From Yuukianura sp. NJ FZ-2021 (lineage: Eukaryota): a stretch of 64,000 nucleotides of DNA. Positions 1 through 57,200 of the stretch are shown here, piece by piece (within the stretch, counting starts at the first letter, position 1; each line of letters starts with the position of its first letter). The position numbers and the translations under genes are program-made. The stretch spans positions 6,262,001-6,326,000 of the forward strand of contig CM102286.1 in assembly GCA_046563655.1 (NCBI GenBank), in the 5' to 3' direction. Below the pieces are notes generated by a model. That model was not told the origin of the DNA, did not search any database, and worked only from the letters and a program-made list of their open reading frames with translations.

Positions 1-35
1 CAGCCCAGCATCACTCAACATATTTTTCTAAATAC

Positions 36-3000
36 CTTTGGTAGTTCAGGAACCTTGGGGACTTCAGCAGCGGCTGCTGCAGGGACATCACTTTCCTCTT
101 TCGGCTCCTCCTTCGTTTCTGGCTCACCGTTCGTCACTACAGCGGCGACGGCGGCCTCCGTCGGAACCTCAGCAGCACTCTCGACTTTTGGTTCTTCGGC
201 CGCTACTTCTGCTGTCTTAGTCTCCTGGCCCTCCGCTGCTGCGGCCTCCTCCTCCTTCTTCTGCAACAGATTCAAAAAAGAAATACAATTAATTAACAAA
301 ATCAAGAGATGCACAAAACCAAGAATCGGTGTAGTCTCGAATATTATAATTAACACTTTTAGCGTGTCACCCTCTCTCTGATCCACTTCCCGCCCTAAAT
401 CCAATTTGAATTCATCATTCATCGTTAAGTACGAAGTGAAAACTTCGGTTTGGATTAAACCTAGCTTTGTCACTACTTTCCCTCGCCTCTGTTCGTATTC
501 TGTTCACACAATTCCTAATTCCTTTCGTCGTTTCCTCACACTTCAGCTTCTAATTTCCAGCCTCCCCGAAAACGTGTCAGTCCAATTCGCATCGATTTCT
601 ATCTCCCTCCTCGTCCAACAGAAACAAAGCATCCGAAACACTGCTAGCAGCGCGTCGTTCCCTTGTCTCCCGCCAACTTCCATTATTTCCCAGACAAAAA
701 CTCAGACTCCATTAAAACAGACTTCTCATCAACTTTGTCATTGTGTATCATCCTTATTCTGAAAGACCGCACGTAATAATGAGTGGTTTGAGGGGAGTGA
801 TCAATAGCAGATTACAGCCAACACTCGTACTATCTTTGGTCTCCGCTCACACTTTTCAGCGTTACGCAACAAACTTCATCTTCCAGAACCAAGTGATCTC
901 GTGAACCAATTAACTCTTTCTCTAGGTTATGTTCAGCGTCTACTACGACAAAGCGGAGGCGGTTTAGCTTTAAAAACCTACACAAAATCCCAGTGACACT
1001 GCGGTTTCATTTCATTTCTGATTCCAGCGTATTACCCGGCTTTTCTATTCCGTCTTTACTGAATTACCTTTCTCCATTTTCTCCTTCGTCTGCCTTTCTC
1101 CGAAAAGAAATGAGATGAAAGACAAATTAAATGACAAGAAAAATAGACGGCAAGCGTATCGCATTTACCTCCTGCTCTAACATAACATAACCTAACTTAA
1201 GGAAAACCTAACCTTAGGGAAAAAAAATGCAGGAGAAAGCTCCGGAATTGTATTACATTAAGGTCCCTCCTTGCCCAGGGAGAAAAAACAGAATAGTTAA
1301 TAGGTTCAAAGTAGGAGAATTGCGTAAGGGGAAAGTTTTCCGAGTTAGATACCAAAGGAGAAAGGAGCCGCTAGAAGAAAAGCAGTGGAGATGAGATTCG
1401 GGTTCTTCCCTTGAATCACAACATCTAAAAACGGGGGGAAAAGGGGGCTCGACCGCAGTCAAGCTTTCGGTTAGGCTAGACAGAAATGGAAAAGTACAGC
1501 GTGGCAGTGGAGGAGGGTGAGTCATCTCGTAAGATTCGATGGGATGTACGATATAAAAAAAATTCGGGTGCTTTTACTCTGTTGAAAAAAAAAATTCGGA
1601 AGCAGAGAGAAAGCTGGTGCGTTTTCCCCCCTCGTCCACTTTTCCAGCCGTCATAAAATACGCGTGCTTTCCCCATTTTTCTAAAACAGTCGCACGTTCA
1701 AACTGCCTCCATTGTCGTAAAATACAAGCCCTCATGACCTGACCTACTGTTTTTCCCTCCGTCCAATTTCCTATTTCCACTCTTTTTTTTTGTCAAAACT
1801 GTTTTCATTTTGCAAGTACTGCCCATAATTTTTTGGGGCTTTACCAGTAAAAATAAACCAAAATCCCAGCACTTCAAACGTCAACATAACTTTACAAGCT
1901 CCTAAACACTTATTCCCTTTGTTCATTGTAAACTTTACGTAGCTAAAAATATTCCAGGGCTGTTAAATTTTCAAAATCCGTTTCATTCCTACACTCAGAT
2001 TCTAGCTCCGCTTGAAAGCCAACTTTAGTCCAAGAATTTCGCCAACTCATCTTCTCGTTGAAATAAAAATCAATTTAGAAAAATGATAAGACATAACTGT
2101 GGTTGATTGGTATGCACATTAAATTTTCTCTTAAGCTTATGGTTTCAGATATGCAATATGCAATACAAAACCACACTGCACAAATCTATTCCCATTCCCA
2201 GCCCACGCCTCCTCCTCAGGACGACCGAGTTCAAGGCCAGGGCAAAACTTTTTTCCAAGGTTGAGCAATCCCTTCCCAACGTAACTTTCTCTTAACCCAA
2301 ACTTAAGCGCATCGGAATCATCAATATCGCTTTTCCATTTTCCATATTCAGCGAATTCTGCAGCGTCAAAACGCTACCCAGCTCTAACTATTTTAAAAAG
2401 TTCAAAATTTAGCGCCAAAGTCGCTCCAGACACTCAAGAATCAAATTCCGCTTACCTTTGACCCTCCCAGGCCAAGCGTATTCAACAATCCTCGTACGAA
2501 ATTCATATTTGCAATTCGGCTAAATATTCTTCCTTGTGGAAAACTTTTGACCACAGACCTAGTCTAACACTAAACTGCGACTAACTCTGACTCAGAATCT
2601 GGAAGACTAAAGAGAAAGACGGTCATAAAAATGTTTCAATCCCAGTCACTCACTGTCCCTATGTTCTGTCCAGCCGATAATGATGCAAGTCACAAATTAG
2701 CTCTAATATAATTCCTCCTGACTCTAACCTTTCCCCTTGCGGTGTCTTGTTTGTCTCTGAACTTAAAAACTTTTGCTAATACGGAAAACAAGCTCAGCTT
2801 TATTAGCTCTACCAACAACAACTTTACATCTGCCACTTCTTCCAGGCTCTCTGCCCAGGTTATGTTTAAAAATAAATTCTAAACTGCACGGAAATGCATA
2901 TGTTTCTTGGCTACCATTTCCTTTCTTTCCACATAGTACAGTCACAAGAAAACTATTTCAATCCTAACTTGCATCATCCTCAAACTTTTCTTGGCAGCAG

Positions 3001-6000
3001 CCGATAGTCACGGGGTCAAAGATATTAGTCTAACCAAGCCTATTCATAAGGTAAAGAAAAGAAACGAGGTCAACTCATGACTGTCATGACGCTCTTGTCG
3101 TGTCAATGACACAAAAGCCAAAGATGACAGGCGGTCAGTCCATGACCAACTCCAGCAGATCACTTTCTCAAACCATGCTGGATCTTGATCTTACATCTTC
3201 TATCACAAAGTAATCCCTGTGACTCATCCTCACTCGATTCCTCCAGGGACAAACCAAGATCAAGCGGAGATTGGATATTGCCATTGCCAAATTGAAATTC
3301 ATATCAGCTCAACCTCAACTTCTATCTTATTTGTATTCTCTCCAGTCTCCAGTATCTCCGCCCTCGATAAGGTGATCACACAAACATATCTCCCGGTGAT
3401 GACGGCCACGCAAGGTCAAGGTGACCAAATCCTTGAAAAAAACATAATGGACTGACTTTGACATTGATGACGGTCTAACATATTCCATTCAAAACTCCAC
3501 AGGAAGCTAACCCAACTATGACTGGACTTGGAACCAGGGAAGCATAGAAACACTTTCCTCCACAAGTAAAATTGAGTCGACTCCGAACTCCGGAATATAA
3601 AATACAGTAAGATTTCGAATAAGTAGAGGGGAAGTATCTTGGCTTGGCAGCATCTGTGCATATACTGCAACGAAAACTGCTAGTTACATGCTGCATCCAA
3701 AGTACACTGTTCCATGCAACAAGGGTTACACATGACAGTGTCAATAGAGATAAAAGGAAGAGACACAGGGACTTTTGACATTGTCCCAGAGGAAATGTTT
3801 CACTTCCATATTTCATGTCAAGTCAAGTCTCAAGTTCAACAATCCGTTCTCCAATAACCAAAGAAGGCAAGACTATGGAAGATGAAGGATTTGGAGAGAA
3901 GATGACGTTCTTGGCATCGTCATACACCCGTAGCTCGTAACTTTATCACCTAAAGTCAACCAGGAGGAAACAGAAAAAAAAAGAAACAATGACATAGGGA
4001 CTATACAGCTCAGTCATCTTCGTCTGAGACTTCGACTCCGGAGGTTTATTTCAAACGACCAAAAAAAAAACAACTTGTCCAATCAACGTCTGAACAATGT
4101 CCGCGTCACTGACCACGAAATGGTCTCGTTTCTACTAAATAAAACACGAAACCATCAAAGTTCACCAGCACAAATACAAATCGCCTTGACTCCGTAAGAA
4201 ACTACATCTTCCAGGCGGGATTCTTTAATCCTTAAGGATTCTGGAAGGAGAGACTTAATAACTGTAGAGAAATTCCCTTCTTCGGAGAGATTTACAAGAT
4301 GAATTAGTAAAGCTAAAATGGCAGGAGGCTCAACGTAAACAGACAGCTATGGATTCCAGAACGCTTAGATTCATTCATTCATTATCTAAATTTTACGCTT
4401 CTTCCTATAGTCATGAAACGCTTAAACTTCTAAGAAGACTAACGCTTTAAAGTACTCTTTCGAAGCACAAAATTCAAAATAGAATTCAACTTTAAGCAAC
4501 AAAGTTAACGGGAAGCGCAGAAGCGACTCAAGAGCAAATGAGCCAAACTTTCAAATTTTTCAACCTCAAAACAGCGTTCAACAAACCGCGACGTCGTTTA
4601 CAGTGAGCCATTTCCTGATAAATTTATGAAAAAACACCGTACTTAATTCACTTCCAATTCCTTATAGCCCATTTCCAAAAATGTTATGTTATTCATGGAA
4701 GAAATTCCAAATAACTTAACATATCAGGACTTTCTCCATTAAAAACAATTTAAGCCTAACAAATCTTATAATGAGATACTTAAGGGCCCCTGAAACAAAA
4801 CAAAACAAAAAACTTGAACTTATTTTTTATTCTCCAGATTTATTCGGTTGGTGTTCGTACTGAATGGAATTGAAGGGCCCTTAGTAGTGCGGTAGCAAAA
4901 CCAAGGGCCCTTAATTCCACCATCTCCAGCTACTTTTCAAATCTTCACACCACCAAAGTTAAAGTTCATGGCAAAAAGAGCTCCAAAACTCCCAAATCTT
5001 CACAAGAAAAGTTAGTAAAACCCTAACCTAAAAAGCAAAGAAGCTCTTTCAGTTCAGAGCGCAACAATTCACCCCTTCCAACTTTTTACTTTTTGTTCAC
5101 ACAAAAGGGCTTTGACAGAGAGCCAAAAAAAAGTTTAGGGGGGACTTGAATAAAACCAGATGTGGTCAGGAGCCTTCGACTCCTCACAAGAAGCATCCTC
5201 ACCAAAAGATGGATGAATGTTATTAACGAATGCAACTTCGTCAAACATGCTTTTCAGTTACAAAATACTACCGTAAATTTCCAAATAAGTACCCCGTTCC
5301 GATAATACCGTCTACTTATTAGTACCTCTCTCCCAAATGCAGAGGAAAAAATTAGTAACTCGGGCCACAATTCGGAAAATCTACGGTGGTACTATGTTAT
5401 TCCGCATCCCTACTTAAGGGCCCCCCTTCACACCCTTAATAAATTCAACTTTACAAAGCTCATTTAAACATCACTTCAGCCACATTTCATTTCAAAACAC
5501 AAAAATTCAACAAAGATGAGAAATTAATTCCGAGAAACATTTTTCCCACTACACAGAAATGACCTTCTAAAATTCAATTCAATTCCTTCAAACAACTTTC
5601 TCCCCCACCTCCATCTCTTTGCTTATATCCTTAGAATATCCCAACCCGTTCCATAACCTAACTTTAGCATTTTATGCTTCGCCGAAGGTGCAGAAACTTT
5701 CACCTCCTTTTCACAAATTCAATTTGAACAAGAAGAAAAACCAAAATTCAGGAGGTTGTGTGCTTTTGTGCTCCGTTCGACGACTCCAGTTCCATTCCAA
5801 GCCCCAGTGCACAATAATATGATTTTCCAGTCCGACTAACCGTGGAGAAAGGAAATAAACATGACTAAACGACCGACCTATAACACTGAAAGAGGTCATT
5901 TCACCTTCAGTTGGAGCTCCAACAATCGTCTCTAGTTATTCCACACGGCTTTCCAACAACAAAACCTAGCCCAACATAACCTAACCCATACGTCCTAACG

Positions 6001-9000
6001 GCCCATTCCAGAACTAATATCAACCTACAATTCAGCTTCTTACGACCTCACAAAAGTTAGCGTAACGAACCCTTGACAGCATGGAACCATTAACAGACAA
6101 CTTCTGCCTTACTTGTCAGTCAAGGCAAACGCACTGCTGGCACACAAAGTCCATTCCGACTAATTTTCCAGCAGTGCTAAACAAGTACTTCAGGGTTCAG
6201 GGACCAAATGGGGGTCAAGGGTTAGCTAGTTTAAGTTAGGCAGTAAGGTTAGGGTAGGCTAAGGGCAATTGGAAACCAGTAGAACAAATACTTTGAGTTT
6301 CACCCATGGGCACTCCCATTTACAGTAATGGTTCTCAAATGCGACTCCAATAAATCACTAGAATTGTAAGCATTAGGAAGCTCATTACGTAAAAAGGTAT
6401 ATAACAAAGTAGCGGCAGCATCTGACCAAAACCTATACAAAACATCTTCGCCTGAACTAGCCTAACTTCTCCTAAAAACGGAAATTTTTCAAGATGTCTT
6501 CGACTGTCGTCGCCCATTTCTTCGTAATTTTTTTTTTCTTGTCTTTTCCAAAAATATTTCTGTAATACTACACAGTGCTATGTACGAGAATTCGGGCGAA
6601 CAAAAAACTCCGAAAACGTGAAAAACTTTTCTTCCGACTGATAAAAAACTACAAAATTTTCCGGTTTAATCCCTATGAGGAGATAGGCTTACTTCAGAAA
6701 AACTATTCTCCTTGTTGCGGAATGAGAGGTTTTACTGTAATTGCAAATGTAATTACCAGAAAAGCTTCGCGTAAATCAGTAAATCTTTTACACTGCCTCT
6801 TTCGGTGATCTCACGGGATTTCGGGCTCTTTCCCGCCGAAACTTTTTAAGCTCCACATTCGATCTTCTGCAAAAACGAAACCTTGCATAGTAAAGTTATC
6901 TCCCCACGTAATCTAAAGTGGCTGAAATTCAGAGGAGGGTGATTTGAATGAGCCTGAATATGGTCCATTGTGTTCTTCTAGCCTTAAAAGAGGTGGGTGG
7001 TAGGTCATAAAAATACTTTCATGAATTCATCTTTTTAAGTCTTCCTGGACCAAAGTCCTTTAGTAGGACTAAGGATCACTCTTAAGGATATACTAGAATA
7101 TTTATTCATCTTTTCTCTACACCAAAGTCCCTGGTTCCTACTTTAGAAAATTGAAGATGAGGACCTCAGCCTCCCAAAGAATTGGAACCTTCTTCCCATC
7201 ATTAAGATTTATATCATCCCAGCAGATAAATCAGCTCAAAATATGTCCTTGTACAACTAAAACGCTGGCGTTACAACCTCCTCCACTCCTTCCGTTTCAA
7301 CTCCACTGCCAACCTAAGCACATTTTACATGCATTTCTGAACAACTTTTTCTAAGTTATAGGAATTTCTCACCGTAGTCCGAGAGAGGGGACTTAGGTGA
7401 AGTTAAGGACCATACAGATGTCGGGGATGATAAAAAGTAGACCAAAGTGAAAGTCCACTTTTCCATTTTGCGTGTGCTGAAATGAACAGTCTCCTGCCGA
7501 CTTAACCGACTGCGTGATACACTTCCTGCTATCCTCCTCAAGTACTTTTGGACAACCACGAGTTATGCTTCCAAGCATTTTCCACCAGGTTCCATCGCAG
7601 CATCCAGGAAAGTTCTTCCAAATCTAAAAATGAGATGCTGGGATGCTGAGAATAGGAAAATGGAGTTGCGGATAAGATAAAGCACATATTTCAAGTGGCC
7701 TCCTCCACTTTCTTCCTTTCCAAAGTCCCGTAAGGCTGTCAAGGCCAGTTAGTATGGAAAGGCGTTGTACGCCATCGCCATCTTGGATGTGGGTGGTGTC
7801 ATGGCAAGATGGCCGTGATGGGGATGTTGGGCAAGATGGTGGGTGGGTGTTGGACAAGATGGAGGGGTCGGCCATCTTGGGTGTTGTGTCATGTTAGGGC
7901 AGTGGCGGTTTGTTGCTGGTCGTTGGGCTTTTTGGTTTCAGTGGGTTCTGATGGTTCTGGGCTGTACTTTCTCCAGCACAACTGTCTTGTTTTTTTGGGT
8001 GGGGGGGGGTATCATCTCCCCTGATTTTCATTTATGATTAGATCCACCTTTTGTAGCTTAATTCAGATCTGTCATTTAGGCTTGGCTGGGCAAAACGGTG
8101 GAGTGGATGGCGGGGTTGTGAAGGTTCTGTTCTTTGGCTGTTTGGATTGAAATAAATTCAAACAGTCTGATATGGTGGTCAATGCGTTCGGTTTTAGTTT
8201 TTTTTACTTGGTGTGGTTCTTTGGTGTGAATGGAGGGGCTCGTTTTTACTGTTTGGATCCAACAGGACTTGTTCCTGGAAAAAAGATTTGAAAAAAAAGC
8301 TTTTGTTGATGGAGTTGGATTGTTTCACTGTAATTTTGTTAGGGGGGATACGATCCTTTTTTTTAAGTTTCTTAGAGTAAATGATTAGAGAACCTGATGT
8401 TTTTATTTTGTTGTAAATGAAACCAAGTTGAAAAAACTGTGGTTTAAAAAACAACACTGTAACTAACCCTAGCGGAAGTTCTTTCTAGAAAAAAAAGGAG
8501 TTCGGAGTTCATCGTGAAGGGTAAAGGTTCACTTTGAATGTTATGGGCATCGGATTGTGGTGTGTCTCACTCGACTGGGATTTGGTACATGTATTGGTAC
8601 TTTCCTGATGTGTTACGGAAGGCCAGGAATGGTAGAGTTTTAAGAATGCGGCGGTATTTTTCTGCATTGGAAAGGTAACGTAGGTGCAGAGATTGAGCTT
8701 TCTTTTATTCTTTTAGTGGTCTATTTCTGAGGTGCAATGTATTTTGTAGCGAAATTTGCCCAGTAAAGCTCGATGCTGTGGAAAACTACTTTTGGAGTCA
8801 AAATACGACCCTAGAGGAGCCGTACATGACCGACGTCAGAGCAAGGCTGCGTGGCGACGATGGCGCCAACTTAGACCACGTCACGTGTGTCTTACAAGAG
8901 CCATCCGCGCTCTGTCTGACCAATACATCGTTATTTATTGGGGGTTTCGGGTCAAGGTTCGGCATTCATAAGGAATCGATGGACATACTTTCAATGAATC

Positions 9001-12000
9001 GTCTCATAGTTGTTGATCAAAACCAAGGCGGTGGTAAATTTTGGTAAATGTTTCTCAGACGGTCAATTTTTTTGTCAAGCCAGTTTTTGTTTCTTTCTTT
9101 TCTTCCTAACCTAACCTAAAAATTACGTATTCTTCAAACAAACTTTTTGAAGCAATTCCAAAACTGAACAAAAACCGCTTTCATCTCAATGTAGGGACGG
9201 TTCACACAGCGCTTTCTTGCATGCAGTATGAATGTTCCGGAATTGGAAATATTGCGTAACTACTGTTCATTTTTTTTTACTGTGCAGTTGTTGATTGTAA
9301 TTTTTTGGGTGTCGCTCTTAGAAACTGCTTAGGTTGAAGTGATTCAAACAGATCCACATGTATCCAGAAATTCAACCAGTACGTGTACATTTATTTCTAT
9401 CCGTATTTCTATTTCGTATTTCTATTCGTATTTCGTAAAAGTATTTCAAATCGAAATTGAGAGGGCATAAGTTTACTCTAGTTCTGAATCTGAAGAGCTA
9501 GCGCTGTCGCTATCCGACTCCGAACTGTCTTCCCCTAGTTGAATTATAATCGGATTGATAGGATTGTGAACAAACGTTTCGGCTAATTTTATTATGTTTC
9601 GTCCGTGCTATGTAAGCTTAGAATCATGACTAAGGTTGACAATCATTTGCTTTTCAGCTGAACTTTTAGCTTTCGGCATTTTGCAAATCAAATTACTCCG
9701 AAACCAGAATCGAATTTAAAGAAAGAAGGATTTTCTAAAGTTCAAAAATATTTTGATGATAAGTTTTCCTTAAGTCAACCTTACACGTTTCTAGGGGTGA
9801 CGCTTGAAAAATTACAATCAACAACTGCACAGTAAAAAAATGAACAGTAACACTGTGTCGGTAAGCTAATTAAGCTAAACTTAATAAGACAAGGTGAATC
9901 AAAACCATCGTCACCTTCACGATAATGGTAGATTTGGGTAGATTGCATACCTCGGAAACCATAGTTGTAACTTTTTCGTGAATAATTTTTGAAATTATTA
10001 AGAATTCACACTAAAATTTCATCGTTCGTGGAAACCGTGCTTAAATTTGCGATAAAGCGAAGGTTAGGGTTAACCTAACCTAAACTAACCTCTGCCGCTT
10101 TAATGCGCTTTGGATTTGTCTCAAAACTTTGTATGAAAAAATCCATAATATCCACATAAGTTAAACAGAACGAAACGCTCGCTCACTCTGTGTTCGCAAC
10201 ACAATTCGCAGCATGCAATCAACATAATTCGTAGCTTCCGCACGATTGTTGCACAAGAGTTTCTTCGCATCGGAAGGCTCGAAGACCTTGCAGGAGCTTG
10301 GTGACATCATAGTCACGCGCGGATATCACCAGGCTTTCAATGTCTCCGAAAATGTGGCTGCTGCCGTTTGCTTCGCAAATGAAAACTGGATTCAACGTGG
10401 GATTTAAGCTGGCAAATGTCGTTGCAAGGCGCATACGAAGTGAAACTTCAAATTACTTTGTTGAATATATTAAAAAATGTCCAAGGCCCGTAGGCGGGGG
10501 GAACTAGAGCTCCGGCTCTATCTTACTAACACCATGGACGGGCGCGGGCTCGAGTCCCGGTGTCGCCGACACGAAAGTCGTATTGCCAAGTTTGCGTTAA
10601 CAACTTAATTGGTGTCGTTAATCTCTCACATAATTTCATAATCTCTCAGGGCTGTCTCTGGCAAATGTCGGCAGTTTGTTTCCTTCTGCTGACTTGGGTA
10701 GTGGACGGTTGGCGGCATACGATGGGCTAAGCGAAAAGGACGGGTGGCGGAGCACGTGCGGCAAGCGGAGGGAATGGAGCGGAGGTGTGGTGGGATTGAG
10801 TTGGAAGTGGAGATGCTGTGGAGGTTTGGCGGCATACGATGGATTAAGCGGAGCAGCGGGAGGGAGCGGTGGCGGAGCGCGTGCGGTAAGCGGAGGGAAT
10901 GGAGTGGAGGTGTGGTGGGATTGAGTTGGAATTGGAGATGTAGTGGAGGTTTGGCGGCTAGAGATTTGCTAAGTGCTGCGGAAGGCAATGTTACCCACAG
11001 GAGTGGTAGTTAGACCAGTGAATAGCCAAGGTGACTTTTCCATCATTTAATCACCTTAACAGGTTGCGTAATACCTCATCTGTTTACCAAAACAAATAAA
11101 ATAACAAAAAAAACTAGTACCATTAGTACCAATTCTAAAACAGCTTGGTACCCGTCAAGGTAAATAGAACACTACTATAAGCTACCTGTACGAATTTCTA
11201 TTTTTGAAATCGTTGCTGATTCAGTGAGGCATTCAAGCTCTTAATTCAGAAAATGGGTAACTGTTCTTTCCCTATCTGCACCGTCACTCAATTGCTTAGT
11301 GGAATAATTGAAAAAAAAAGAGTTTCCAAATGTCGAATTGAAGCTCATTCTAAAATTCGTTCGTGTGCGGACGTTAATCAGAATGCGACCCCTGGATTTG
11401 AAAATTGAAACTGCCAAATCAAGACACAAACTCCGAAAAATTCAGTTATTCTTTCAGCCCATTTTGTTTTGCACTGGAAAAATTTCAAGCAATAACAATT
11501 TAAGAATTTTTTCTCAAAAAAATCGGAAGATTACGCTTACAATATTGCGGCAACGATTTCCTGGCGATGTGAAAAAATTTTTTTTGGACCTAACCAAATT
11601 CTTAAGAGATACAAAATTAACAAACCTTGGTGAATATCGTGAGAAGTGGGTGAGTGAGAACGGTGAGGCACAAATGTGTTCTATCATTCAAGTGTTAACT
11701 CGGAATGTGTTAACATGTGGAACCACGTGAAGTCCTAGGTGGACCTAGGCGTCAGTGCGGAAGTCGTATTTCTACAAAGCGGAGTGTCGGTTACGTACTC
11801 TGATCAGTTTGTTTTAGGAGTTTGAACTGCCAACAAGAATAAAATGTTTGGTTCCGGTGGACTCGTCCCTCTCAATATCTCGCAGGCGGCGTTACCTCTG
11901 GACACAGAGCCAGAGGAGCGGGTTGTAAAAGTGGCAGCAAAGCTGCATTGTTCGTACTGTCCGAAGAGCTTTACAAGAAAAGACACTTTGAAAAGACACG

Positions 12001-15000
12001 AGCAAAATTTTCATAAGCAAACCGAAGAATCTGAATCGCACGACGAAGAACAGAGCGACGAGGAACCTGCGTCTTCAAGCACTGAGAGTGTTGACTCGGA
12101 CGAAGAAGTGTCAGAGGCCGAATCTGCGCCAGATAATCCGGAATTGACACGTGAAAGCATTGAACTTCTGCAGCATTTACTTGCAAATGCGAAGAACGGA
12201 GTGCAAAAAGTGACAAAGGATATACTGGTTAACATAATAGAGGGTGCCGATCCTTAGAAGTTAAAACCAAGCAGCTTTATTGGAATTCAAAGCCCTGGCT
12301 TCCACTAGTAAGTTAAAAACAAACGTATCGTACGACCTAATCTGTTCAAATGTGTAATTCTTGCATGACTTAATTTTCTCACACAAGGTGGTAGCATCTC
12401 TTACATTATTATACACAATCCTACACAAGACATCATTTCAAATTTTTTGGATCGGGCGTGAAGTACGCACGAGATGAGAGATTCCAATTCTCGTAACTCG
12501 TAAAACCCGTGCCAACTTGAGATGCTGAAAACAAGTTCAATTACAGCAAACGGACTCAACCTATCCGCGGACCCGAAACAGGATTTTCACGTTTTTCGCA
12601 ATATATTCAAGCGATATGAACAGAAACTTTTTTTTAATTTCTTAGATGAAAAGTAACATTATCGTTCTGAGGTTCTGTTAACATGAAATATCTCTAGTTT
12701 TTGAAAATATTTAAAAAATTTAAGCTGCTCTATAATAATTTACTACTTTCTGTCTACTAATTTCACAGGGAGCCTCTAATTCTTAATATTCTTTCCGATG
12801 CATGAAATAAAGGAGCCAGAAATTTGTTATTCAATTTATGAACGTATATTTTTTTTTCCCCGCAATACTAACTGCAAAATCAAAAGCATGCGAGATTCTG
12901 ATTCTCTACAAGTGACATTTCTATCTACCGCCAAAATTTTCCATAACAGAACAGAGGGACGATCTTTCGAAGTGAGATTCGCTGGTCACAAATGATGCAA
13001 CTAAACTGACCTTCCCTCCCATTCTCCAAAACACAAATCTTAGCAAAATGCCTTTAAAAAATATTCCTTAATGTTTGAACCCTTTCAAACCATGTTCCCT
13101 GGAAATTCATTTATAAATTACAATCAAGTTAGTTACACAATATACTTAAGGAAAACTTATCATCAAAATATTTTTGAACTTTAGAAAATCCTTCTTTCTT
13201 TAAATTCGATTCTGGTTTCGGAGTAATTTGATTTGCAAAATGCCGAAAGCTAAAAGTTCAGCTGAAAAGCAAATGATTGTCAACCTTAGTCATGATTCTA
13301 AGCTTACATAGCACGGACGAAACATAATAAAATTAGCCGAAACGTTTGTTCACAATCCTATTAATCCGATTATAATTCAACTAGGTAAAGACAGTTCGGA
13401 CTCGAATAGCGACAGCGCTAGCTCTTCAGATTCAGAACTAGAGTAAACTTATGCCCTCTCAATTTCGATTTGAAATACTTTTACGAAATACGAATAGAAA
13501 TACCAAATAGAAATACGGATAGAAATAAATGTACACGTACTGGTTGAATTTCTGGATACATGTGGATCTGTTTGAATCACTTCAACCTAAGCAGTTTCTA
13601 AGAGCGACACCCAAAAAATTACAATCAACAACTGCACAGTAAAAAAAATGAACAGTAGTTACGCAATATTTCCAATTCCGGAACATTCATACTGCATGCA
13701 AGAAAGCGCTGTGTGAACCGTCCCTACATTGAGATGAAAGCGGTTTTTGTTCAGTTTTGGAATTGCTTCAAAAAGTTTGTTTGAAGAATACGTAATTTTT
13801 AGGTTAGGTTAGGAAGAAAAGAAAGAAACAAAAACTGGCTTGACAAAAAAATTGACCGTCTGAGAAACATTTACCAAAATTTACCACCGCCTTGGTTTTG
13901 ATCAACAACTATGAGACGATTCATTGAAAGTATGTCCATCGATTCCTTATGAATGCCGAACCTTGACCCGAAACCCCCAATAAATAACGATGTATTGGTC
14001 AGACAGAGCGCGGATGGCTCTTGTAAGACACACGTGACGTGGTCTAAGTTGGCGCCATCGTCGCCACGCAGCCTTGCTCTGACGTCGGTCATGTACGGCT
14101 CCTCTAGGGTCGTATCTTGACTCCAAAAGTAGTTTTCCACAGCATCGAGCTTTACTGGGCAAATTTCGCTACAAAATACATTGCACCTCAGAAATAGACC
14201 ACTAAAAGAATAAAAGAAAGCTCAATCTCTGCACCTACGTTACCTTTCCAATGCAGAAAAATACCGCCGCATTCTTAAAACTCTACCATTCCTGGCCTTC
14301 CGTAACACATCAGGAAAGTACCAATACATGTACCAAATCCCAGTCGAGTGAGACACACCACAATCCGATGCCCATAACATTCAAAGTGAACCTTTACCCT
14401 TCACGATGAACTCCGAACTCCTTTTTTTTCTAGAAAGAACTTCCGCTAGGGTTAGTTACAGTGTTGTTTTTTAAACCACAGTTTTTTCAACTTGGTTTCA
14501 TTTACAACAAAATAAAAACATCAGGTTCTCTAATCATTTACTCTAAGAAACTTAAAAAAAGGATCGTATCCCCCCTAACAAAATTACAGTGAAACAATCC
14601 AACTCCATCAACAAAAGCTTTTTTTTCAAATCTTTTTTCCAGGAACAAGTCCTGTTGGATCCAAACAGTAAAAACGAGCCCCCCCCCCTCCATTCACACC
14701 AAAGAACCACACCAAGTAAAAAAAACTAAAACCGAACGCATTGACCACCATATCAGACTGTTTGAATTTATTTCAATCCAAACAGCCAAAGAACAGAACC
14801 TTCACAACCCCGCCATCCACTCCACCGTTTTGCCCAGCCAAGCCTAAATGACAGATCTGAATTAAGCTACAAAAGGTGGATCTAATCATAAATGAAAATC
14901 AGGGGAGATGATACCCCCCCCCCCAAAAAAAACAAGACAGTTGTGCTGGAGAAAGTACAGCCCAGAACCATCAGAACCCACTGAAACCAAAAAGCCCAAC

Positions 15001-18000
15001 GACCAGCAACAAACCGCCACTGCCCTAACATGACACAACACCCAAGATGGCCGACCCCTCCATCTTGTCCAACACCCACCCACCATCTTGCCCAACATCC
15101 CCATCACGGCCATCTTGCCATGACACCACCCACATCCAAGATGGCGGTGGCGTACAACGCCTTTCCATACTAACTAAGGCCCCAGTAGTAAGTGCACAGC
15201 GACATTTTTCCTCTCCATAAATGTTACCCCAAGGGGTATACCTTCCCCAGCGGACACATACAGCCCTGAAATCACCTAAGAAGCAGCAGTGCACATCTTC
15301 CGCAAAAGGAAATTCCTCTCTCCACCTTCACCAGAGGAATGCTGTAGAATTGAATCATGCTTTAATCCTAAAACCATACCAAGATAATCCTAACCTAAAA
15401 ATCCAATTCTAAACCTTTTTAGAAAGGAGAGCAAGTGAAAAGAAGCACTTTCAGAATAGAGCCAGATTAGACAGTCACTTTGGGAGACTTAAAAATGTCT
15501 CACAGGGATCAGTCATGACCTTTCCCATACATTCTACTTTATCCTCCCTCAAAACAATTACCATTACCGTCACCATTTCTATCCTCAAATTATGAGGCCC
15601 AAGAACCAACTACGACCTTCAAAAATCAATACCGTGCAGTCCAACACCTCAATTTCGAAAAACGTTAAAAAAGAACCGACAAATATCGTCGTAAAGATAT
15701 AGAAAACCGCAAATTTTTTTAAACTTCTTTCAAATTCAGCAAATTCTGGGAATCAATAATTTTACAAATTTTTCGACTTAATTTTTTTTTCCTTTAACAG
15801 AGGCAAAGTGGTGAGCTTTCTCGTGAATTTTTTTTAACGAAAACTAACTACATACAGCAGTCGTACAACAAAATATAAAATAAACGCATTTGTTTTTAAA
15901 AATTGGAAGTAGGTTCGAAAAATTAACTACGTGGAAATTTTTAAGTGAGAGTAATTTACTTTTTTTTAAATGTTGTTTTTCCTGCACTGGGTGAAAGCAC
16001 AAATCATGCAAGTTCATGCCAAGTCGACTCGACTCGTAAAAACGCATAGTCGAACTCGAAATTATTCAGTAAAACCGTATTTCTAATTAAATTGAATACT
16101 AATAAAATTTAATTCAGATTTCCATAAGTCATATCGTTCGAAACAGAACTCAAATCCTTCGTCACTTCCTGCTTCAAAATCATAAACTTTTATTATCCTC
16201 AAGTGCATCTTTCAATTAAAAAATCAGATGCATCAACCCATTCATCTTCCCGCAACAAAAGTAGTGCCGGATTAACAAAGAATAGGTTAATTAGTACTAA
16301 ATAAATTATTATATAAAAATCCCATTCATCAATCCACACCCTTCAACCGTCAACCATTGAAGTGGACTGTGGACATTTAAAAACCCATGCTGACCCACTG
16401 CACACTGCACTCCATCTTAACTTATCCCCTCCACCACTTCATCTCTCCATCTTTCTCAAAATCCAAGTACCAGTCAACATGGATTCAGCGTCTGCGCTCC
16501 AACTTCAAACTTTTCATCTCTCACAAAGTACAACACTGAAATAAATGAGCCCATTGTTAACTCACTCTCCATGTACATCCACTGCCAGCACTCCAAGCAC
16601 AAGGCCTAATTACACGCAAGTGTCTGGACACACAACCAACTATAAATTTCAACTTACTTCTTATCCAAACCAAAATGGCACAAAATTAGACAGGGACGAA
16701 GTGCTTGGCAGTTAACCTAGCAGCACAACAACTCAAATTATTCAACGAATACTCCCAGCGCAATTCATTATACTAGACGGAACCCGTAATGCTTACGCAT
16801 CACGAAATAATTTGAAGCACTTTGACATGAAGGAAGGATGATTTGGAACATTTTGTCAAAAATCCGCTAGCTTTTTCGTTGACCCGAGTATGACCTAGTG
16901 CTTCAAGTTATTTGGTGATGCGTAAGCATCACGGGTTCCGTCTAGTTGAATCGAAAATGTTATTGTCGAGGCTGGGGGGGCAAGCCCCCCCAGACCCCCC
17001 CCCCCATCTTCCTTCTGACTTGAGTTGAGATTGAGATGGAATTTTTGGAAGTCTTTGCTTGGAGGAGTAAATGTAAAAGGGACACCTCAGGATCGTTCCA
17101 CTCTTCCAAGCAGAGAGTTTTCTCTACCTATAGTTTGCATTAGCATGGGATTTCACGTTGTGACGGAGCAACGCTCGTCAATTAGAGTATGATTCCTTCC
17201 CACTCCCAACAGTCGACCATTATTTTTATGTCCACACAACTTTCACCCAAACTTGTTCCAAAATTTCCTAAAACTAAAACTGGACTCAAATTAATAAAAA
17301 TTTCATTCGGAATCGGATTCTTCCCCTCTTCCTTCCTCCAGTTTACTTTGCGTGCTTCCCAGTTTTTACTTTAGTTCACCAAAAGCTCACCGGAAGTAGC
17401 TCACTTTTTTTAAGACTCCCACCAACCATTGTCTTTCAAGTTTCAGCATTCAATTCAAGTTTTTTAGCTAAAAGGAAAGGGGAGTTCCCTCTTTGATTCA
17501 AAATTGTTAGCCTGAGTGCTCATCCTTCACTGTTAATTCCCAACCAAAGAACAATCTCCTGTCTTCATCAACTTCGCAATTAGACCTCATTTAAAATTAA
17601 AACCTCAACAACATTTTGATGATGGCGGCAAAAAACAAAACCAGTTCAAAAGTACAAAAAATCACTAAAAACAAAAAACTTTTCCCAAGTTTAACGTTAA
17701 GTATCACACTAATCACCCTGCACAAAGTATTCCCTACGCCTAGCTTAGCAGTTTAGACAGAAATTACTCTCATCTCATCACTGTCGCCTCTCACTCCGTT
17801 GATGGCTTCAAGTGTGACACTTGATACAACACCCACGGAAAAACATAAGACACAAAAAAATTGTCACTTTAGTTACAAGTTCAGCAGCATCAGCATCGGA
17901 AAGAGATGCCGAGAAAACCAGGAGAGACTGTTAAAAACTTTTTTTTTCAAGAGGAGAATGTTATCCATCTAAGGCTCTCAGCACGGCAGGATGCACAAAA

Positions 18001-27228: not shown

Positions 27229-29831
27229 CCTCTTGAACCCTAAATACGACTTTAGTCGTATTTTGTTTGCGTGCTCAGGGGCCTGAATACGACTATAGTC
27301 GTACTTTCTGTGCGTGCTCAGGGGCCTGAATACGACTAAAGTCGTATTTTCTGTGCGTGCTCAGGGGCCTGAATACGACTTTAGTCGTATTCTGTTTCCG
27401 TGCTCAGGAGCCGGACTACGACTATTGTCGTATTTTTTTTCCGTTTTTAAAATAAAAAAAGAAACCTTTTGTGAAATGTTATTGGGACGGATTCCTATGG
27501 AAAATGAATTGAAAATCTTTTTATAAAAGAAGAAAATTTTGAAAAAATTGAAAAATCAATATTTTTTTAAATTTTGACAACGTAACAACGTATTCCAACG
27601 TAATTCGAACTTCTTGGCCAAAATTCAAATTATAAAAAATATTCGAAGTGAAAAAGTGTATTCTTGGACACATATTTCAGCTTTGTTTGACCCAAAAAAA
27701 TAATTAGTCTCAACTTTTCTTACATTTCTTGTGATGATGTCATATAGGAAGGTCCACATTAAAAGTATACAATAGAATTGATTATTTACTTCAACAGTTA
27801 AAAATAATTAAATATTCGAAAATAATGTAATAATGATGATACAATAGGCGTTATAAACAAATATAACCACAAAATATATCTATGCCAATATGTTTAAGTA
27901 TAAACAATTAAATAAATAAAATATAGAATGAAATGAATAGTAAATAAAACGAATTAAATAAATATAAAATATTTTAGAAATATATATATTTATATACATT
28001 TTATTAATTAATTAATTTTATTATTAAATTTTATAAAATAAGTTAAGGTAATAATAACTTTGAAAATAATATTAATAGAATAAAAAAAGATCCTACGATA
28101 AGTTATTACTAAAGATACTTTACTATTATATTATATAAAAAATTATTATTTACTATTACTTCATTATTGCCTTATTATTTTATTATTAATATTATTATTA
28201 CATAGTACTATTACATATTATATGCTTATTATACATTATTTTATTTCTTCCACCTAGATCGAATTAAGTAGAAGTATCCATTTCTATCCATTTTATCCAG
28301 CCCTTTCGTCCGGACGAAACCGGAATAAATGTATTCTCCATTGCATATCCACTGAGCGAAGCGTCAAAAAAGTGGATATCCACCAACTGAATATTAGTGT
28401 GCTCGCATGGATAAAATATTTTTTCCATGCACTAGATGAGGTGCAAGTATCTGGAAGTATCAATTTCTATCCAGTCATTTCGTCCGGATAAAACTGGATG
28501 AAATACATTATCCACTGAACAAAACGTTTATTAACTTATTATTACAAAATTAATTCTTATATTATTATTTATAACTATTATTAATTAATTATTATTATTA
28601 ATGAAAATTAATTATTAATATTAATAAAAATTAATTATTATTAATAATTATTATAAAAAAATTTAAAATTACAACATAATTGAAAAAACAAACTTTCTAT
28701 TCACCGTTAAATCTAAAAAAATATACAAATAATACACACCCGGCGGGTAAAGCTCCGCTCCTTTGGATTCATTCATTTCGTCCATTTCTTCCACTGGATA
28801 TCCAGTCGTAGATGAAATGTCGAACAAGTGGATATCCGCCAATACTGATGTTTGTGATATGTTTCAGTGAAAATTTACTGAAATTTAATATTTTAATTAA
28901 TTAATTAATTAATTAAAAAATTAACTAACTGCTTTATTAGCATTAATTATTATTAAATAATTAATTATTATTTTATTGTGAATTAGTCAATCAATTTCTT
29001 AAATTTTGTTTTATTTGAATGAAAAATCTCAATATAATATATAATATAATTATACAGTGTAACGTTTGTGATATATATCAATGAAAATTTAGTAAAATTT
29101 TTATTTTATTTAATTTATTTATTTACTAATTAATTATTTTATTACTATGAATTATTATTACAGAATTTCAAAAATTCCAAAATATTGTTGTATTTTTTTC
29201 AAATGTCATCACACCTTCTAACTTACTAGCTTTTCACTTTTTGGAAAAAAGGGTATTTTCAAAAATGCAGAATTTCGCTGAGCTGAGCAGCCTCGCCATA
29301 TTCAATACTTATGTTAGCATATGATATTATTACAATCAAAAATGTTGCACTCGTCATGAAAAGTTGAGAAAATGGTTTTTGGTTGTCAAAAAAGTGTAAA
29401 ATGCCCAGAAATAAATTTTCTAACAGTAATTTGAATTTTGCTTAAAAAGGACGAATTACTTCGGGAAACACTTTTTCGGTTTTTTTTTAAATTCTTGAAT
29501 TTTTTTTTCAAAAAAAATTAGGGGTGTATGTACATGTACTAAGGCAATTGACAAGAAACTCCAAAATTTTTGTATCATATTCCAAAAAAAAATTGGAATT
29601 TGTGTCAAACTAATCCGGCACCAACATTATGTTAGATTGTGTATTTAATTTTGGGTCAAATATGTGAGAAAATATCGGGGCATAAATCCGGCCACTTGTG
29701 TCACCCCACAAAAAAAATGGCGTCGCCCTGGAATCGTAACAATATTTTAATTTAGTCAGCCGTGGTAACCAATGGAAATTAAAAGAGGGCCGAAAAACAA
29801 ACACCTCGAAAATAATTCAGGGTTCAAGAGG
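27229..29831. mobile_element. Non-autonomous piggyBac-type element nested in the pogo
   Basis: TTAA at 27225-27228 and 29832-29835, 13-bp perfect TIR CCTCTTGAACCCT, very AT-rich non-coding interior. Confidence 0.8.
27239..27435 (+). repeat. Subterminal tandem array of five ~43-bp units, each with the palindrome TACGACT(W)(W)AGTCGTA
   Basis: Unit is approximately CCTGAATACGACTATAGTCGTATTTTCTGTGCGTGCTCAGGGG and starts within the left TIR; the fifth copy is degenerate. Confidence 0.9.
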
Positions 29832-29944
29832 TTAATAGCGCGAAAACCTGTAGTTTAAAGTTAAGAACTGAGATTTCACACCTGGTTTCTTACCCTTGCG
29901 GTCAAGTTAATTTCTACATCAGTATAACTCTTAAGTTTTTAACG

Positions 29945-30435
29945 ATGGATGGACCAAAGGTCACTCGCAAATCGTACACGGCAGAATTTAAGCTTCTGGT
30001 CTGTCGGAGAGCCGAGGCAGTTGGCAATCGTCCTGCTGCTCGTGAATTCTCAATTGATGAGCGCAGTATTCGCCTGTGGAGGAAATCGCAAGACAGTCTT
30101 TCCAAAATAAAGAAAAAGACTGGTCAGAAAAGTTGGAACTTTTTCGCGCTTATGTGGCTGAAAAGAAGTGTCTGGGTTCAATCTCCACAAAAAATATTCT
30201 CAACATGGACGAAGTTCCGTGTCAATTTGATTTGCCTGACACCAGAACCATCGCTGAAACGGGTCAAAAGGATGTCACATTGGTTACCACTGGCTCTGAG
30301 AAAAAAAGTTTCACGGTAATCTTGGCCGTAGGTGCTGAAGGGGAGAAATTGGTGGGACGGATTTGCTCAATTGACACTAGATTAGAACAGTTTAACGTAG
30401 AGTCTAGTACGTTTTCACACAATTCCTACTCTTGA
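29945..30435 (+). pseudogene. pogo transposase remnant: Brinker-type DNA-binding N-terminus joined out of frame to the start of a DDE_1 domain
   Basis: RKSYTAEFKLLVCRRAEAVGNRPAAREFSIDERSIRLWRK (BrkDBD-like HTH), then in another frame NILNMDEVPCQFDLP...TTGSEKKSFTVILAVGAEGEKL (first catalytic Asp). The CENP-B HTH and the rest of the DDE domain are missing. Confidence 0.85.
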
Positions 30436-52680: not shown

Positions 52681-53778
52681 ATGAATTCAGCTTGCCGAAG
52701 AGGATTATTCCAATTCTTGACGCCGTTTGTGAAGAATCACTTTACCGGTGAATCACTCCTGGTGAAAGGAAGGGGAATCTCGTACTCAGCGTCGTTAAAC
52801 ATGCCAATCAAGGTAACTATTCAAACACTTACAATGTGTTAATTGCAAATTACGAATAAGCAGAGCTCTTTTTCATTTTAAATTGATCTTATTTTTAGGT
52901 AGGAGAGAAGCTTCCAAATGTTGACCTTTTCGAAGGAAACCCAGGAGGGAAAGTGAACCTTGGCGATCTTGTCAAGGGGAAGAAAGTCGTCATCTTCGGA
53001 GTACCCGGTGAGCAATTCTTATTTTATCAAAGACAAAGATTTACTTTATCAAAGACAAAGATCCTACCGCAGAAAACAATTAATTTTTTATAAATATTTT
53101 TTTCTGCTTCTTAGGTGCATTTACTCCGACTTGTTCCAAGGTAAACAAACGAGCTTGGGCTATGTAGCCTCCTTTCTCGCGGATAACAATTTCTTACCTG
53201 TTTCCCGTAAATATTTAACGTTTGACGATTTACAGACACATCTTCCTGGATATGTTGATCAAGCTGGAGAAATCCGCGCAAAAGGAATTTCGGAAATTGT
53301 CTGTGTCTCGGTCAACGATCCTTTCGTAATGGCTGCCTGGGGAGAACAGAATAAAGCTGACGGAAAGGTAACATTATTTGCCTTACCGCCAAGTTGGCCT
53401 GAATCGTTTTGTTATACCGAATAGTTGTATTAATTTTTTCTTAATTTTTGGTTTGAAGGTGCGAATGCTTGCTGATACGACAGCCGAATTTACGAAGGCT
53501 ATTGATGTAGCTCTGGACTTGACGGGACCCCTTGGAGGCATTCGATCGAAACGGTTTGCTATGCTGGTAAGAAACGTGTTTGGTTAACACCTAAGCAAAC
53601 AGTACTCCACCTAAACATTGATTTTCTTTCTCTACGTCTACAAAATATTTCCGAATTGATCAATTTTTCAATAAAAACTTTCCAGGTCGATGATGGCGTG
53701 GTGAAAGCAATGGAGGTGGAACCTGACGGAACTGGAGCTACATGCTCTCTTTCAAACAACTTCTTGAAGAAGTTGTAA
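52681..53778 (+). CDS. Prx5: Peroxiredoxin 5 (atypical 2-Cys); exons 52681-52812, 52899-53007, 53115-53140, 53236-53367, 53459-53566, 53686-53778. 199 aa with presequence, 159 aa from the second ATG at 52801.
   Basis: GVPGAFTPTCSKTHLPGY (peroxidatic Cys), CVSVNDPFVMAAW, RSKRFAML and EPDGTGATCS (resolving Cys). 40-aa in-frame upstream extension resembles a mitochondrial presequence. C-terminus is KKL. Confidence 0.95.
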
Positions 53779-54206: not shown

Positions 54207-57200
54207 TTAGACAATTGAGCTTATGTATTGTGAATCAAATGAAGCGTAAGTATTTTTGAATATCTTTTTGTACTCAAGAAGTGCTTCTTGATTTCTTTCT
54301 GTTTTGTCATCATAGGCAGATCGTTTCTTTGGATCCGAAAGAATTTCATACGCCTCCCGAATTTCCTGGAACAACTTCGTCTCAATCGTCTTCACTTTGT
54401 CGGATTCTGTAAAATGTTTATCTAACAAGAAAAAATCCAAAATGGAGATTAGTCCCCAGCATCAAACAACTTCAAGCTTGTTGCACTTGAACCATCATCT
54501 TATGATCTTCCACGTGGGGAGCAACCAGCGGGAACGTAAAAGTTGAACGACTTACCCGGATGATGTCTCAAGGACTTTCTCCTGAATGCTCTTTTGATGT
54601 CATTTTGAGAAAGTGTTCGTGCAACTCCTAGGATTTTGTAGTAATCCTTAGCGTTGGAATTAGCAATCTGCTCCATCTTCTCTACAACTTTCAGCAGAAC
54701 GACAATATTCGTGTCCTCTGGAGCATAACTTTGAGCAATCTTGAAACAAAAGGTTCGTTAGCACATTCTAATTTTACTTTTTTATGTACATTTTCAAGAA
54801 GTACTAAGCTTTTGTTAACCCTCAGTTCGGCGAAAGCCTTGTCAAATAAATCCTTCTCCACCAGGAGCATCGCACGGTGGACTCTGGGGCGTACAAATGG
54901 AATATTTTCTTTGTTCCGAATTGAACGTTTTGATCGTCTGGTTTCTTTTCCATTTAGAATCGATGGTGAATACTTCCTGGAAGAACTTCCTTTGTCCACA
55001 GTTGGAATTTCTTGGCTGTGGCTACAACTTGCACTACAACCTGCCATTCCATTTGTGCCCTAAGAATGATACCGGAAAACTTCAGTTATATCAATTACGA
55101 ATCAAGAAGCTCAATTCAATGGAAGAAAGTTCTCACCAAATGATTTTCCGGAAACTCGAGGTAGACGAGGAGCTTCTGCATTTCACGCCCATGTCGAATC
55201 ACAACGTAGATTCCAAAGACTTTGAATAAGACACGTACAACATTGTAGGTAACATAGAAAACGGAGAGAAAGACGTATGGAAGAAAAAATCGGATGCAGA
55301 GAATGATGAGGGAGACTAGGGCAATGCGGGACCTGAATTAAATTTTCAAGCTTCTTAATTGTTTTGGAAACTTGAAATTTAAAATTTCCTTACCAAATGC
55401 GACAGGCAGCTCGTTCGTTTTCAGGAATGGCTTTCTAAAATGTCAGAAGGGAAAAGCAACTTCTAAAAGTTAGGAATTTGTGGAGAAAGTTTCGTAATTT
55501 GAGGTCACAGAGGTCTTTTGTTTGCTGTTTGCGTGGTGTCTCACTTGATACATAGAGAACATCGCAAACAAAAGTGAAAGCAGAAGGAGAAACTTTGACT
55601 TTAAACTTTGCCTTGAGCACTGAACCTTGAACACGTTCGATATCTCACGCTGGTTACAAGTGTAAGGTTACACTGGAAACGAGCCCGAGAAAGCTACAGG
55701 CTGGCATGTTACTCCTGCCCAATTACTTTCAAATTAACTTACGAGGACTGGCTCTTGGCCGTTTTTCGAAATCTGAAATTCTGAAACACGGAAGTGGTTT
55801 CTCATTGTTCAAAAACACTTTTGGCACCATTCCCGTTTCACAACGCGAAAAAAAAAGAATTCGACCCGGGGTGGGATTGAACACCTGTCGGGCGAAACGG
55901 CGAAAGTGACCTTTTTCGGGGTGGGGACTCTATCCCCTGGACCAAAACAAAGACCACAGAGCTGGTCCCTAGAAAATGAGTTTTTCATGCGCACAGGAAG
56001 GGGGAAAGTGAAAGTCAAAGAAATTTTTTTCAAATTAAAAGTTAACCGATTAAAATTAACAACGACACTAATTGCTCTTAAGAGGAGCATTCTACAACAA
56101 ACAAATTACGATCTTTCCCCCGTTTTTCGCAAATACTCAAGGTTTATCTAATTTAATATCCCAGTTAAAAAAAAACAAAGTGACTTACTTTCGTCTAAAA
56201 TCGTAACAATTTTAAATTTTGTTCAATTTTTGAAAGTTAACATGTTTTTAGAATATTGGCACTCTGTAATGTGATATTCAAAAAAGAAACATGAAAAACA
56301 AAGTATCTTATTACAATGACTGCATCGGATGAAACGACTTTCTTTTTGACATTTGTTGCAAATCGGTGAGTCTCCTTTCTTCCAGTGAAAGCAAATCTGC
56401 TCAACTGAAAAGAAATTCTCCTTGTCGCTGGATTCCAGAAATCCTGCAGCTACAAAAGAGTAGCGTATCATAGGGTTAAAAACTATGATTTCTCCAAATT
56501 GCAAGTTTTGATTTCGAAGAAAGCGAAGCACATCCATTATGTTGAAGCGTCGAAAGGCTATACTTTGGGTGAGAATCCGCGAATTTGACAATTCGTACTC
56601 TCTTCAAGTGGAATTTCGTTGACTTCCATCTCTTGCTCTATAGCAAACGATTCGTCCCGTTCATTGATGTCTAAAAAGTTTAATTTTAAATTGTTGTCAG
56701 ACACTTTCACCTTATGTGAAATAATATGAAAAATGTACAGTGTGTACAAGTTTTTGGAGTAAAAAGTTTAAATTCCAGATTCTGATGTCTTGATGTACCA
56801 TGAATCGTCAAGTCTTCTTCTTCGGCTAAAACGAAATCATCCAGCATTTGCAAGAACAATTTAAACAGCTTTCTTGCAAATAAGTTCTGTACTTTCACTA
56901 TGATTGGGAATATCGTGTCCTTTGAACTCCTTTTCTACAATCCGAACAAATTTTCTTGCGATTGTAATAGGATTAACCTCTGACGACTCCATATTTGTGA
57001 AATACTTTGACTTTCACTTTAATAATGAGAGGAACTACGTCGGTTTTACGAAAAAAAAACGTTTTTCTTGTACCTTCCATTTTTCCCTGCAGGTGTGCAT
57101 CATTAATTACTTTTTTACCAACGGGAACAGCTAATTAGGTTTTTGTCCAGAGGATAGAGCTCCCACCCCGAAAAAGGTCACTTTCGCCGTTTCGCCCGAT

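Follow-up and report, generated by a model that had tools for sequence, protein, structure and literature searches.

What kind of mobile DNA leaves behind a 7.4-kb unit with 2-kb inverted arms and an exact 6-bp target-site duplication, and where did the genes that it carries come from? These questions are raised by a 64,000-nucleotide stretch of the Yuukianura sp. NJ FZ-2021 genome (GenBank assembly GCA_046563655.1, contig CM102286.1, positions 6,262,001 to 6,326,000 of the forward strand), which was analyzed as a whole and is referred to below as the window. An earlier interpretation made from the letters alone, here called the sequence-only reading, had proposed that the window holds a Maverick/Polinton-like element reduced to its terminal inverted repeats (TIRs) and chromatin-related cargo. 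Our analysis indicates that this unit is almost certainly a real, mobile, non-autonomous TIR element. Its probable relatives, the enzyme that may have moved it, and the origin of its cargo, which includes what appears to be a dead histone demethylase gene, are considered in turn.

A polymorphic insertion at AAGGCC

The unit spans positions 7747-15175 (7,429 bp), with inverted arms of 2,029 and 2,032 bp and AG...CT ends, and the duplicated AAGGCC that borders it is exact (7741-7746 and 15176-15181); the sequence-only reading was correct in all of these coordinates and counts. The unit starts with AGTTAGTATGG and finishes with CCATACTAACT. When the window was searched for repeats, 7747-9775 and 13144-15175 aligned as five collinear inverted segments, each 99-100% complementary. 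BLASTN placed the two arms at 99.115% identity over 2035 columns (9 mismatches, 4 gap openings), and MAFFT found differences in 18 of 2035 columns (9 with substitutions, 9 with gaps). Within the window, the terminal 27-mer is present at the two ends of the unit and nowhere else, and it had no match in 100 shuffles. Within the terminus, AGTTAGTA...TACTAACT, AGT is present twice with one extra base between (AGT-T-AGT, a period of 4 and not 3), and each end has, in its outermost 135 bp, five copies of the heptamer AAGATGG or its complement CCATCTT in alternating orientation. Ten of the 21 heptamers in the 64-kb window are found in the unit's two ends. A composite in which host DNA is bordered on each side by a complete small element was also considered and is ruled out, the terminal motif being located solely at the two outer ends.

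Contigs from public read sets were compared with window positions 5500-17500. Four runs were used, of which X1, X2, and X4 represent one sample of organism A from one study and X3 represents organism B from a second study. The empty site that the sequence-only reading had anticipated is present in all four runs, and in both samples: contigs pass straight from 7740 to 15176, with 7435 bases left out, and at the joint six letters fit either side, so that a single AAGGCC is retained. These contigs are anchored by 203 bases in X1, 255 in X3, 255 in X4 (on a 9391-nt contig), and only 24 in X2; support is thus solid in three of the four runs, representing two independent studies.

Contigs identical to the window were recovered from the interior of the element in X1 and X2 (9827-10579, 11329-13119, 8353-9018, and others), and the organism A sample, which has the element as well as the empty allele, may be the source of the window assembly. 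The filled left junction at this site was seen in none of the four runs. Words of the unique interior had depths of ~41-62 in X1 and X2, compared with ~140-200 for the flanks, depth not being equal to copy number. From organism B, an 843-nt contig extends across the border between the unique interior and the right arm (12379-13211), and a contig was found that leaves the element exactly at 15175 and continues for 255 bases into unrelated DNA. The latter represents a further copy that has the same terminus and sits at a different locus, seen on one flank only. Another organism B contig departs 68 bases in from the element end, which points to variants within the family that have only the terminus in common. 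Matches to the terminal 20-mer were absent from metagenome, viral, and prokaryote contig collections.

The exact empty site and the second-locus contig identify the element as a real transposable-element insertion. This insertion is polymorphic, the empty allele persisting in the read sets of two samples, and it is because of the polymorphism that we judge it to be recent. The sequence-only reading had also called it recent, citing the near-identical arms; that part of its reasoning does not hold, as TIR elements lack a clock of the kind that long terminal repeats provide.

Secondary origin of the inverted arms

Homology between the arms stops at 9775, a point 18 bases inside the second of the two inverted ends of a nested unit resembling a MITE (a miniature transposable element with inverted repeats). 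The MITE-like unit straddles the left arm's inner boundary, and the right arm holds a truncated copy of it at 13144-13660; the unit is multi-copy in both organisms, with an X1 depth of ~890-1240 compared with ~200 in the flanks. Because arm homology ends inside the nested MITE, the arms were lengthened after the MITE inserted, and the order of events read from this layout is MITE insertion first and arm duplication second. The arms arose secondarily, when ~2 kb of the left side was duplicated in inverted orientation, and are not an original non-coding TIR. What the 99.1% identity dates is this duplication, or a later homogenization, and not the insertion.

A dead KDM4-type gene and other cargo

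Two pieces of a JmjC demethylase relic lie on the same strand of the element and in the right order, with ~30 residues between them not found (Table 1). The N-terminal piece is a stop-free frame with in-frame stops just upstream (8676, 8694) and at 9045. Its top PDB match was weak (KDM4B residues 116-202, E 0.58) and aligned the H-x-E motif to the iron site of the enzyme, and its ten best Atlas clusters all carry JmjC (score 0.94, 181/256 features). The same piece had no Pfam match, no match at E<=1e-3 in a HMMER search of 1.84 billion representatives, and no relatives among longer proteins or in viral contigs. Since this 5' part of the gene lies inside the arms, it is present twice, with an inverted copy at 13874-14221. 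The C-terminal piece was recognized more clearly: with stops translated as X, 10147-10500 matched residues 284-358 of yeast Rph1 (E 5e-7, 33 bits) and KDM4A-D at E 3e-5 to 5e-4 (KDM4D 2.9e-5), and 37 KDM4/Rph1-type matches were obtained at E <= 5e-4. The match spans the region of the second iron-binding His and the Cys-x-Cys that follows it, and in the best-conserved stretch 19 of 40 residues (~47%, counted manually) are identical to human KDM4D.

Together, the two pieces appear to be one KDM4-type gene that is now dead. The interior piece aligns with Rph1 and KDM4A-D and the arm piece retains H-x-E, as in demethylases of the KDM4/JHDM3-Rph1 group; unlike those enzymes, the relic is interrupted by stops, and a JmjN domain was not found. 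When the relic was extended upstream (8469-9104, read through) or downstream (8886-9263), no match was obtained in the PDB. The motifs of the H-x-E...H iron site are kept in a frame that is broken at 9045, 10225, 10405, and 10441. The JmjC relic named in the sequence-only reading is thereby confirmed and placed in the KDM4/Rph1 type, and the "anti-silencing module" that it envisaged is, in this copy, a dead gene. As the relic is far diverged, the gene most likely died long before this insertion.

The zinc-finger open reading frame (ORF) of the sequence-only reading was likewise recovered, as an intact frame with one C2H2 finger (E 8.5e-5, 23.2 bits, below the Pfam cut-off of 25.2). Its relatives were sought by word search and in viral contigs, where none were found, and its Atlas neighbors were generic C2H2 proteins only. 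The "small acidic ORF" reported beside it is real as an acidic tract and is most simply the tail of the C2H2 ORF, not a separate ORF. The "tRNA-like unit" was not supported, with no hits from ARAGORN or, at E<=1, from Rfam, and probably corresponds to the high-copy repeat fragment at 10312-10581. The interior as a whole is a patchwork of repeat fragments.

Table 1. Features of the element and its borders, in window positions (depths refer to run X1).
Feature	Positions	Strand	Evidence or remarks
Left target-site duplication AAGGCC	7741..7746	.	Empty site retains one copy
Left inverted arm, 2029 bp	7747..9775	+	Repeat search, BLASTN, MAFFT
Terminal region, starts AGTTAGTA	7747..7880	+	AAGATGG/CCATCTT at 7778, 7806, 7833, 7856, 7872
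JmjC relic, N-terminal piece; stop-free 116 codons, H-x-E iron-site motif	8697..9044	+	Inside left arm
Nested MITE-like unit, ~590 bp	9261..9851	.	Inverted ends 9272-9354 / 9758-9840 (83-90 bp)
Unique interior, 3368 bp	9776..13143	+	X1 and X2 contigs 100% identical
JmjC relic, C-terminal piece, KDM4/Rph1 type	10210..10449	+	In-frame stops 10225, 10405, 10441
High-copy repeat fragment	~10312..10581	.	X1 depth 6847; other copies diverge after 10581 in all four runs
G-rich repeat of ~125 bp, 2 copies plus partial copies	10701..10975	.	Repeat search, BLASTN
Intact 137-codon ORF: one C2H2 finger, acidic Ser/Glu/Asp tract, short C-terminal tail	11844..12257	+	Pfam
Right inverted arm, 2032 bp	13144..15175	-	Holds second JmjC N-terminal piece, 13874-14221
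Right target-site duplication AAGGCC	15176..15181	.	Sequence and empty-site contigs

How these genes came to lie in a transposon can be explained in two ways. The cargo may be host DNA, with a JmjC pseudogene already old and a small gene for a zinc-finger protein, caught by accident between transposon ends, and we regard the case for this explanation as evenly balanced. It agrees with the divergence of the relic and its several stops, which suggest a gene dead long before the insertion, with the lack of any intact relative of the arm piece in the HMMER search described above, and with the patchwork interior; the 116-codon open frame and the H-x-E that the arm piece retains despite its divergence speak against it. 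Capture of host DNA is compatible with either of the mobilizing enzymes discussed below, a Polinton integrase or a DDE transposase, and so does not exclude the reading built on either. The other explanation is that the ancestral family was an insect Maverick/Polinton-like element with its own KDM4-type H3K9/H3K36 demethylase, perhaps plus a small C2H2 protein, which stripped repressive marks from the element's own copies; we think this very unlikely.

Affiliation and mobilization

Genes for transposition were sought in two ways. Pfam searches of 53 ORFs (17, and then 36 further ones of >=45 codons) identified no polymerase, integrase, protease, ATPase, capsid, or DDE transposase family, and six read-through frames of the left arm and interior, searched against Pfam at E<=0.5, contained no relic of any of these. 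The sequence-only reading had likewise seen no protein-primed DNA polymerase (pPolB), integrase, ATPase, protease, or capsid genes. Having no transposition genes of its own, the element would have to be moved in trans.

Several features of the element speak for Mavericks/Polintons. Its one complete insertion has a 6-bp duplication, which is described as the characteristic length for Polintons (PMC10045372) and has served to define such elements in vertebrates, lizards, and nematodes (PMC8097293, PMC3014272, PMC10748475). Its arms fall within the span of Maverick/Polinton TIRs, from hundreds of bp to ~2 kb; those of vertebrate Mavericks are given as 46-1447 bp (PMC8097293), and gene-bearing TIRs of ~2 kb are reported for Pieris polintons in a preprint that also describes insect derivatives without polB that still moved (bioRxiv 10.1101/2025.02.07.637071). 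The AG...CT ends, with AGT reiterated around one extra base, partly recall those of vertebrate Mavericks, which terminate in 5'-(AGT)2//(ACT)2-3' or (AG)3//(CT)3 beside 6-bp duplications, motifs whose reiteration is thought to permit jumping-back in protein-primed replication (PMC8097293). IS3EU/GingerRoot, the other superfamily in which duplications are 6 bp long, has TA..TA ends (PMC10045372) and does not fit the element.

Other observations weigh against this affiliation. Polintons by definition encode pPolB and a retroviral-like integrase (PMC5499653) and are reported to be 13-25 kb in size (PMC10748475), whereas in this 7.4-kb element every core gene (pPolB, integrase, capsid, protease, and ATPase) is gone, which makes it at most a non-autonomous derivative. 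The complete lack of Polinton gene relics is unusual for a deletion derivative. The complete insertion has been seen once, so that the 6-bp length has a sample size of one, and the second locus shows one flank. The end motif, AGT-T-AGT with its extra base, is not the published (AGT)2, and the published motifs are from vertebrates whereas the host belongs to an insect lineage. Lastly, the five alternating short motifs within 135 bp of the end form a subterminal array, and arrays of that kind resemble the transposase-binding arrays of cut-and-paste elements.

Given both sets of evidence, we find it plausible that the element is a Polinton-type derivative moved in trans, and give this an even chance of being correct. 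What survives of the sequence-only reading in this respect is a mobile element with a 6-bp duplication and no transposition genes; the superfamily it named is drawn from a single insertion and carries that same even weighting. Superfamily, mobilization in trans, and mode of replication are what we infer, and on that footing the history of the copy might be as follows. The element inserted recently at AAGGCC in non-coding DNA, at a 6-bp staggered cut. The likeliest mover would be the retroviral-type integrase of a Maverick/Polinton that shares the element's termini, an enzyme that would make this cut; encoded elsewhere, it would recognize the terminal ~70 bases. Copies would probably be made by the protein-primed polymerase of that same Polinton, with the terminal reiterated AGT serving as the "jumping-back" start. 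The cargo would now be inactive, with a dead JmjC gene and a C2H2 ORF that is open.

It is also possible, though in our view somewhat improbable, that the element is a non-autonomous cut-and-paste transposon of a DDE superfamily that makes 6-bp duplications (an atypical hAT-like lineage, one related to IS3EU/GingerRoot, or a family not yet described), and that its arms were lengthened by aberrant repair, foldback-style. The heptamer array at each end would suit such an element, and the total lack of Polinton gene relics among the ORFs and frames searched is consistent with it. The low depth of the interior relative to the flanks would fit a low-copy element that does not multiply, a weak hint given that depth is not copy number. 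However, DDE relics were likewise not detected in the six read-through frames, and the AGT-reiterated terminus is left unexplained. The length of the duplication also departs from those of familiar families: hAT duplications are typically 8 bp, those of Galileo 7 bp, and those of Foldback 9 bp. hAT elements are further defined by short TIRs and a hAT transposase; here the duplication is 6 bp, and neither a hAT dimerization domain nor a hAT transposase family was found in the six read-through frames. The 6-bp duplication is shared with IS3EU/GingerRoot, the termini of which are reported as TA..TA and occasionally TG..CA (PMC10045372); the element differs from these in its AG..CT termini, and no transposase relic was found in it. 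It is like Foldback and Galileo in having arms that are very long for its size and an interior that is gutted or non-coding. Foldback/Galileo arms are described as internally repetitive (PMC3573991), unlike those of the element, which consist of unique sequence with a gene relic and a MITE inside it.

That the locus is no transposon at all, but an artefact of assembly such as a fold-back chimera, or else a segmental duplication formed locally in inverted orientation, is extremely improbable: long inverted repeats are a known error of long-read assembly, and all four runs carry the empty allele with none showing the filled left junction, but an artefact would not produce a target-site duplication, the empty site is exact with a single AAGGCC and clean ends, X1 and X2 contain interior contigs with 100% identity, and organism B contigs bridge 12379-13211 and leave at 15175 into a different flank.

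Other insertions and genes in the window

Beyond the element, contigs in all four runs bypass a 420-bp segment at 16772-17191, with a joint from 16771 to 17192 and one shared letter. The segment is within a very high-copy repeat (X1 depth up to ~18,000), and an inverted repeat is located at 16767-16828/16890-16951. It is a second polymorphic insertion, probably of a MITE or a short interspersed element. Further along the window, an inverted-repeat element at 55729-57358 has 220-bp arms that are 93% alike and 1190 bp apart, and its interior ORF at 56226-56603 (minus strand) matches the Tc5 transposase C-terminal domain (E 2.7e-5); it is a decayed pogo/Tc5-type transposon, unrelated to the element at 7747-15175. 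The ORF at 29816-30319 has a DNA-binding domain of Brinker type (E 2e-7) and probably represents what is left of a pogo/Tigger-like transposase, namely its helix-turn-helix head.

Host exons were found within 52957-53424, 54503-54757, and 60613-61663, with matches to Redoxin-like (E 1.7e-4), the start of DnaJ (E 9e-10), and tubulin cofactor C (TBCC_N E 1e-9, TBCC E 2e-24). The sequence-only reading had placed the insertion in an Akap200 intron. This was not confirmed: the acidic Ala/Glu/Pro-rich ORF at 15-503 (minus strand) that it read as Akap200 had no match, and the exon-like ORF at 15-260 (minus strand) had no matches and no Pfam family.

Significance

A non-autonomous TIR element, plausibly a Polinton derivative, is of a known kind; the family that it represents had no match in the collections searched. 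The dead KDM4-type gene is a lead only towards transposon-borne chromatin enzymes, resting on the relic in one copy. In the portions of the literature that the search covered, no case of such an enzyme was found in animals. If the ancestral family did encode its own demethylase, it would provide a self-encoded anti-silencing gene in an animal transposon, the 5' part of which was absorbed into the arms, and this genome or related ones may still contain intact copies elsewhere.

As the arms show, genes and nested transposons can be taken up into long inverted repeats of Polinton type. Should the element prove to belong to a cut-and-paste family instead, it would be an ordinary non-autonomous transposon with unusually long arms. 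If the Maverick/Polinton assignment holds, a small derivative without any core genes has moved recently, which would imply that a working Polinton integrase, and probably a polymerase, acts in trans in this insect lineage, and the element would offer a compact 7.4-kb substrate for studying how the ends of virus-like elements are recognized.

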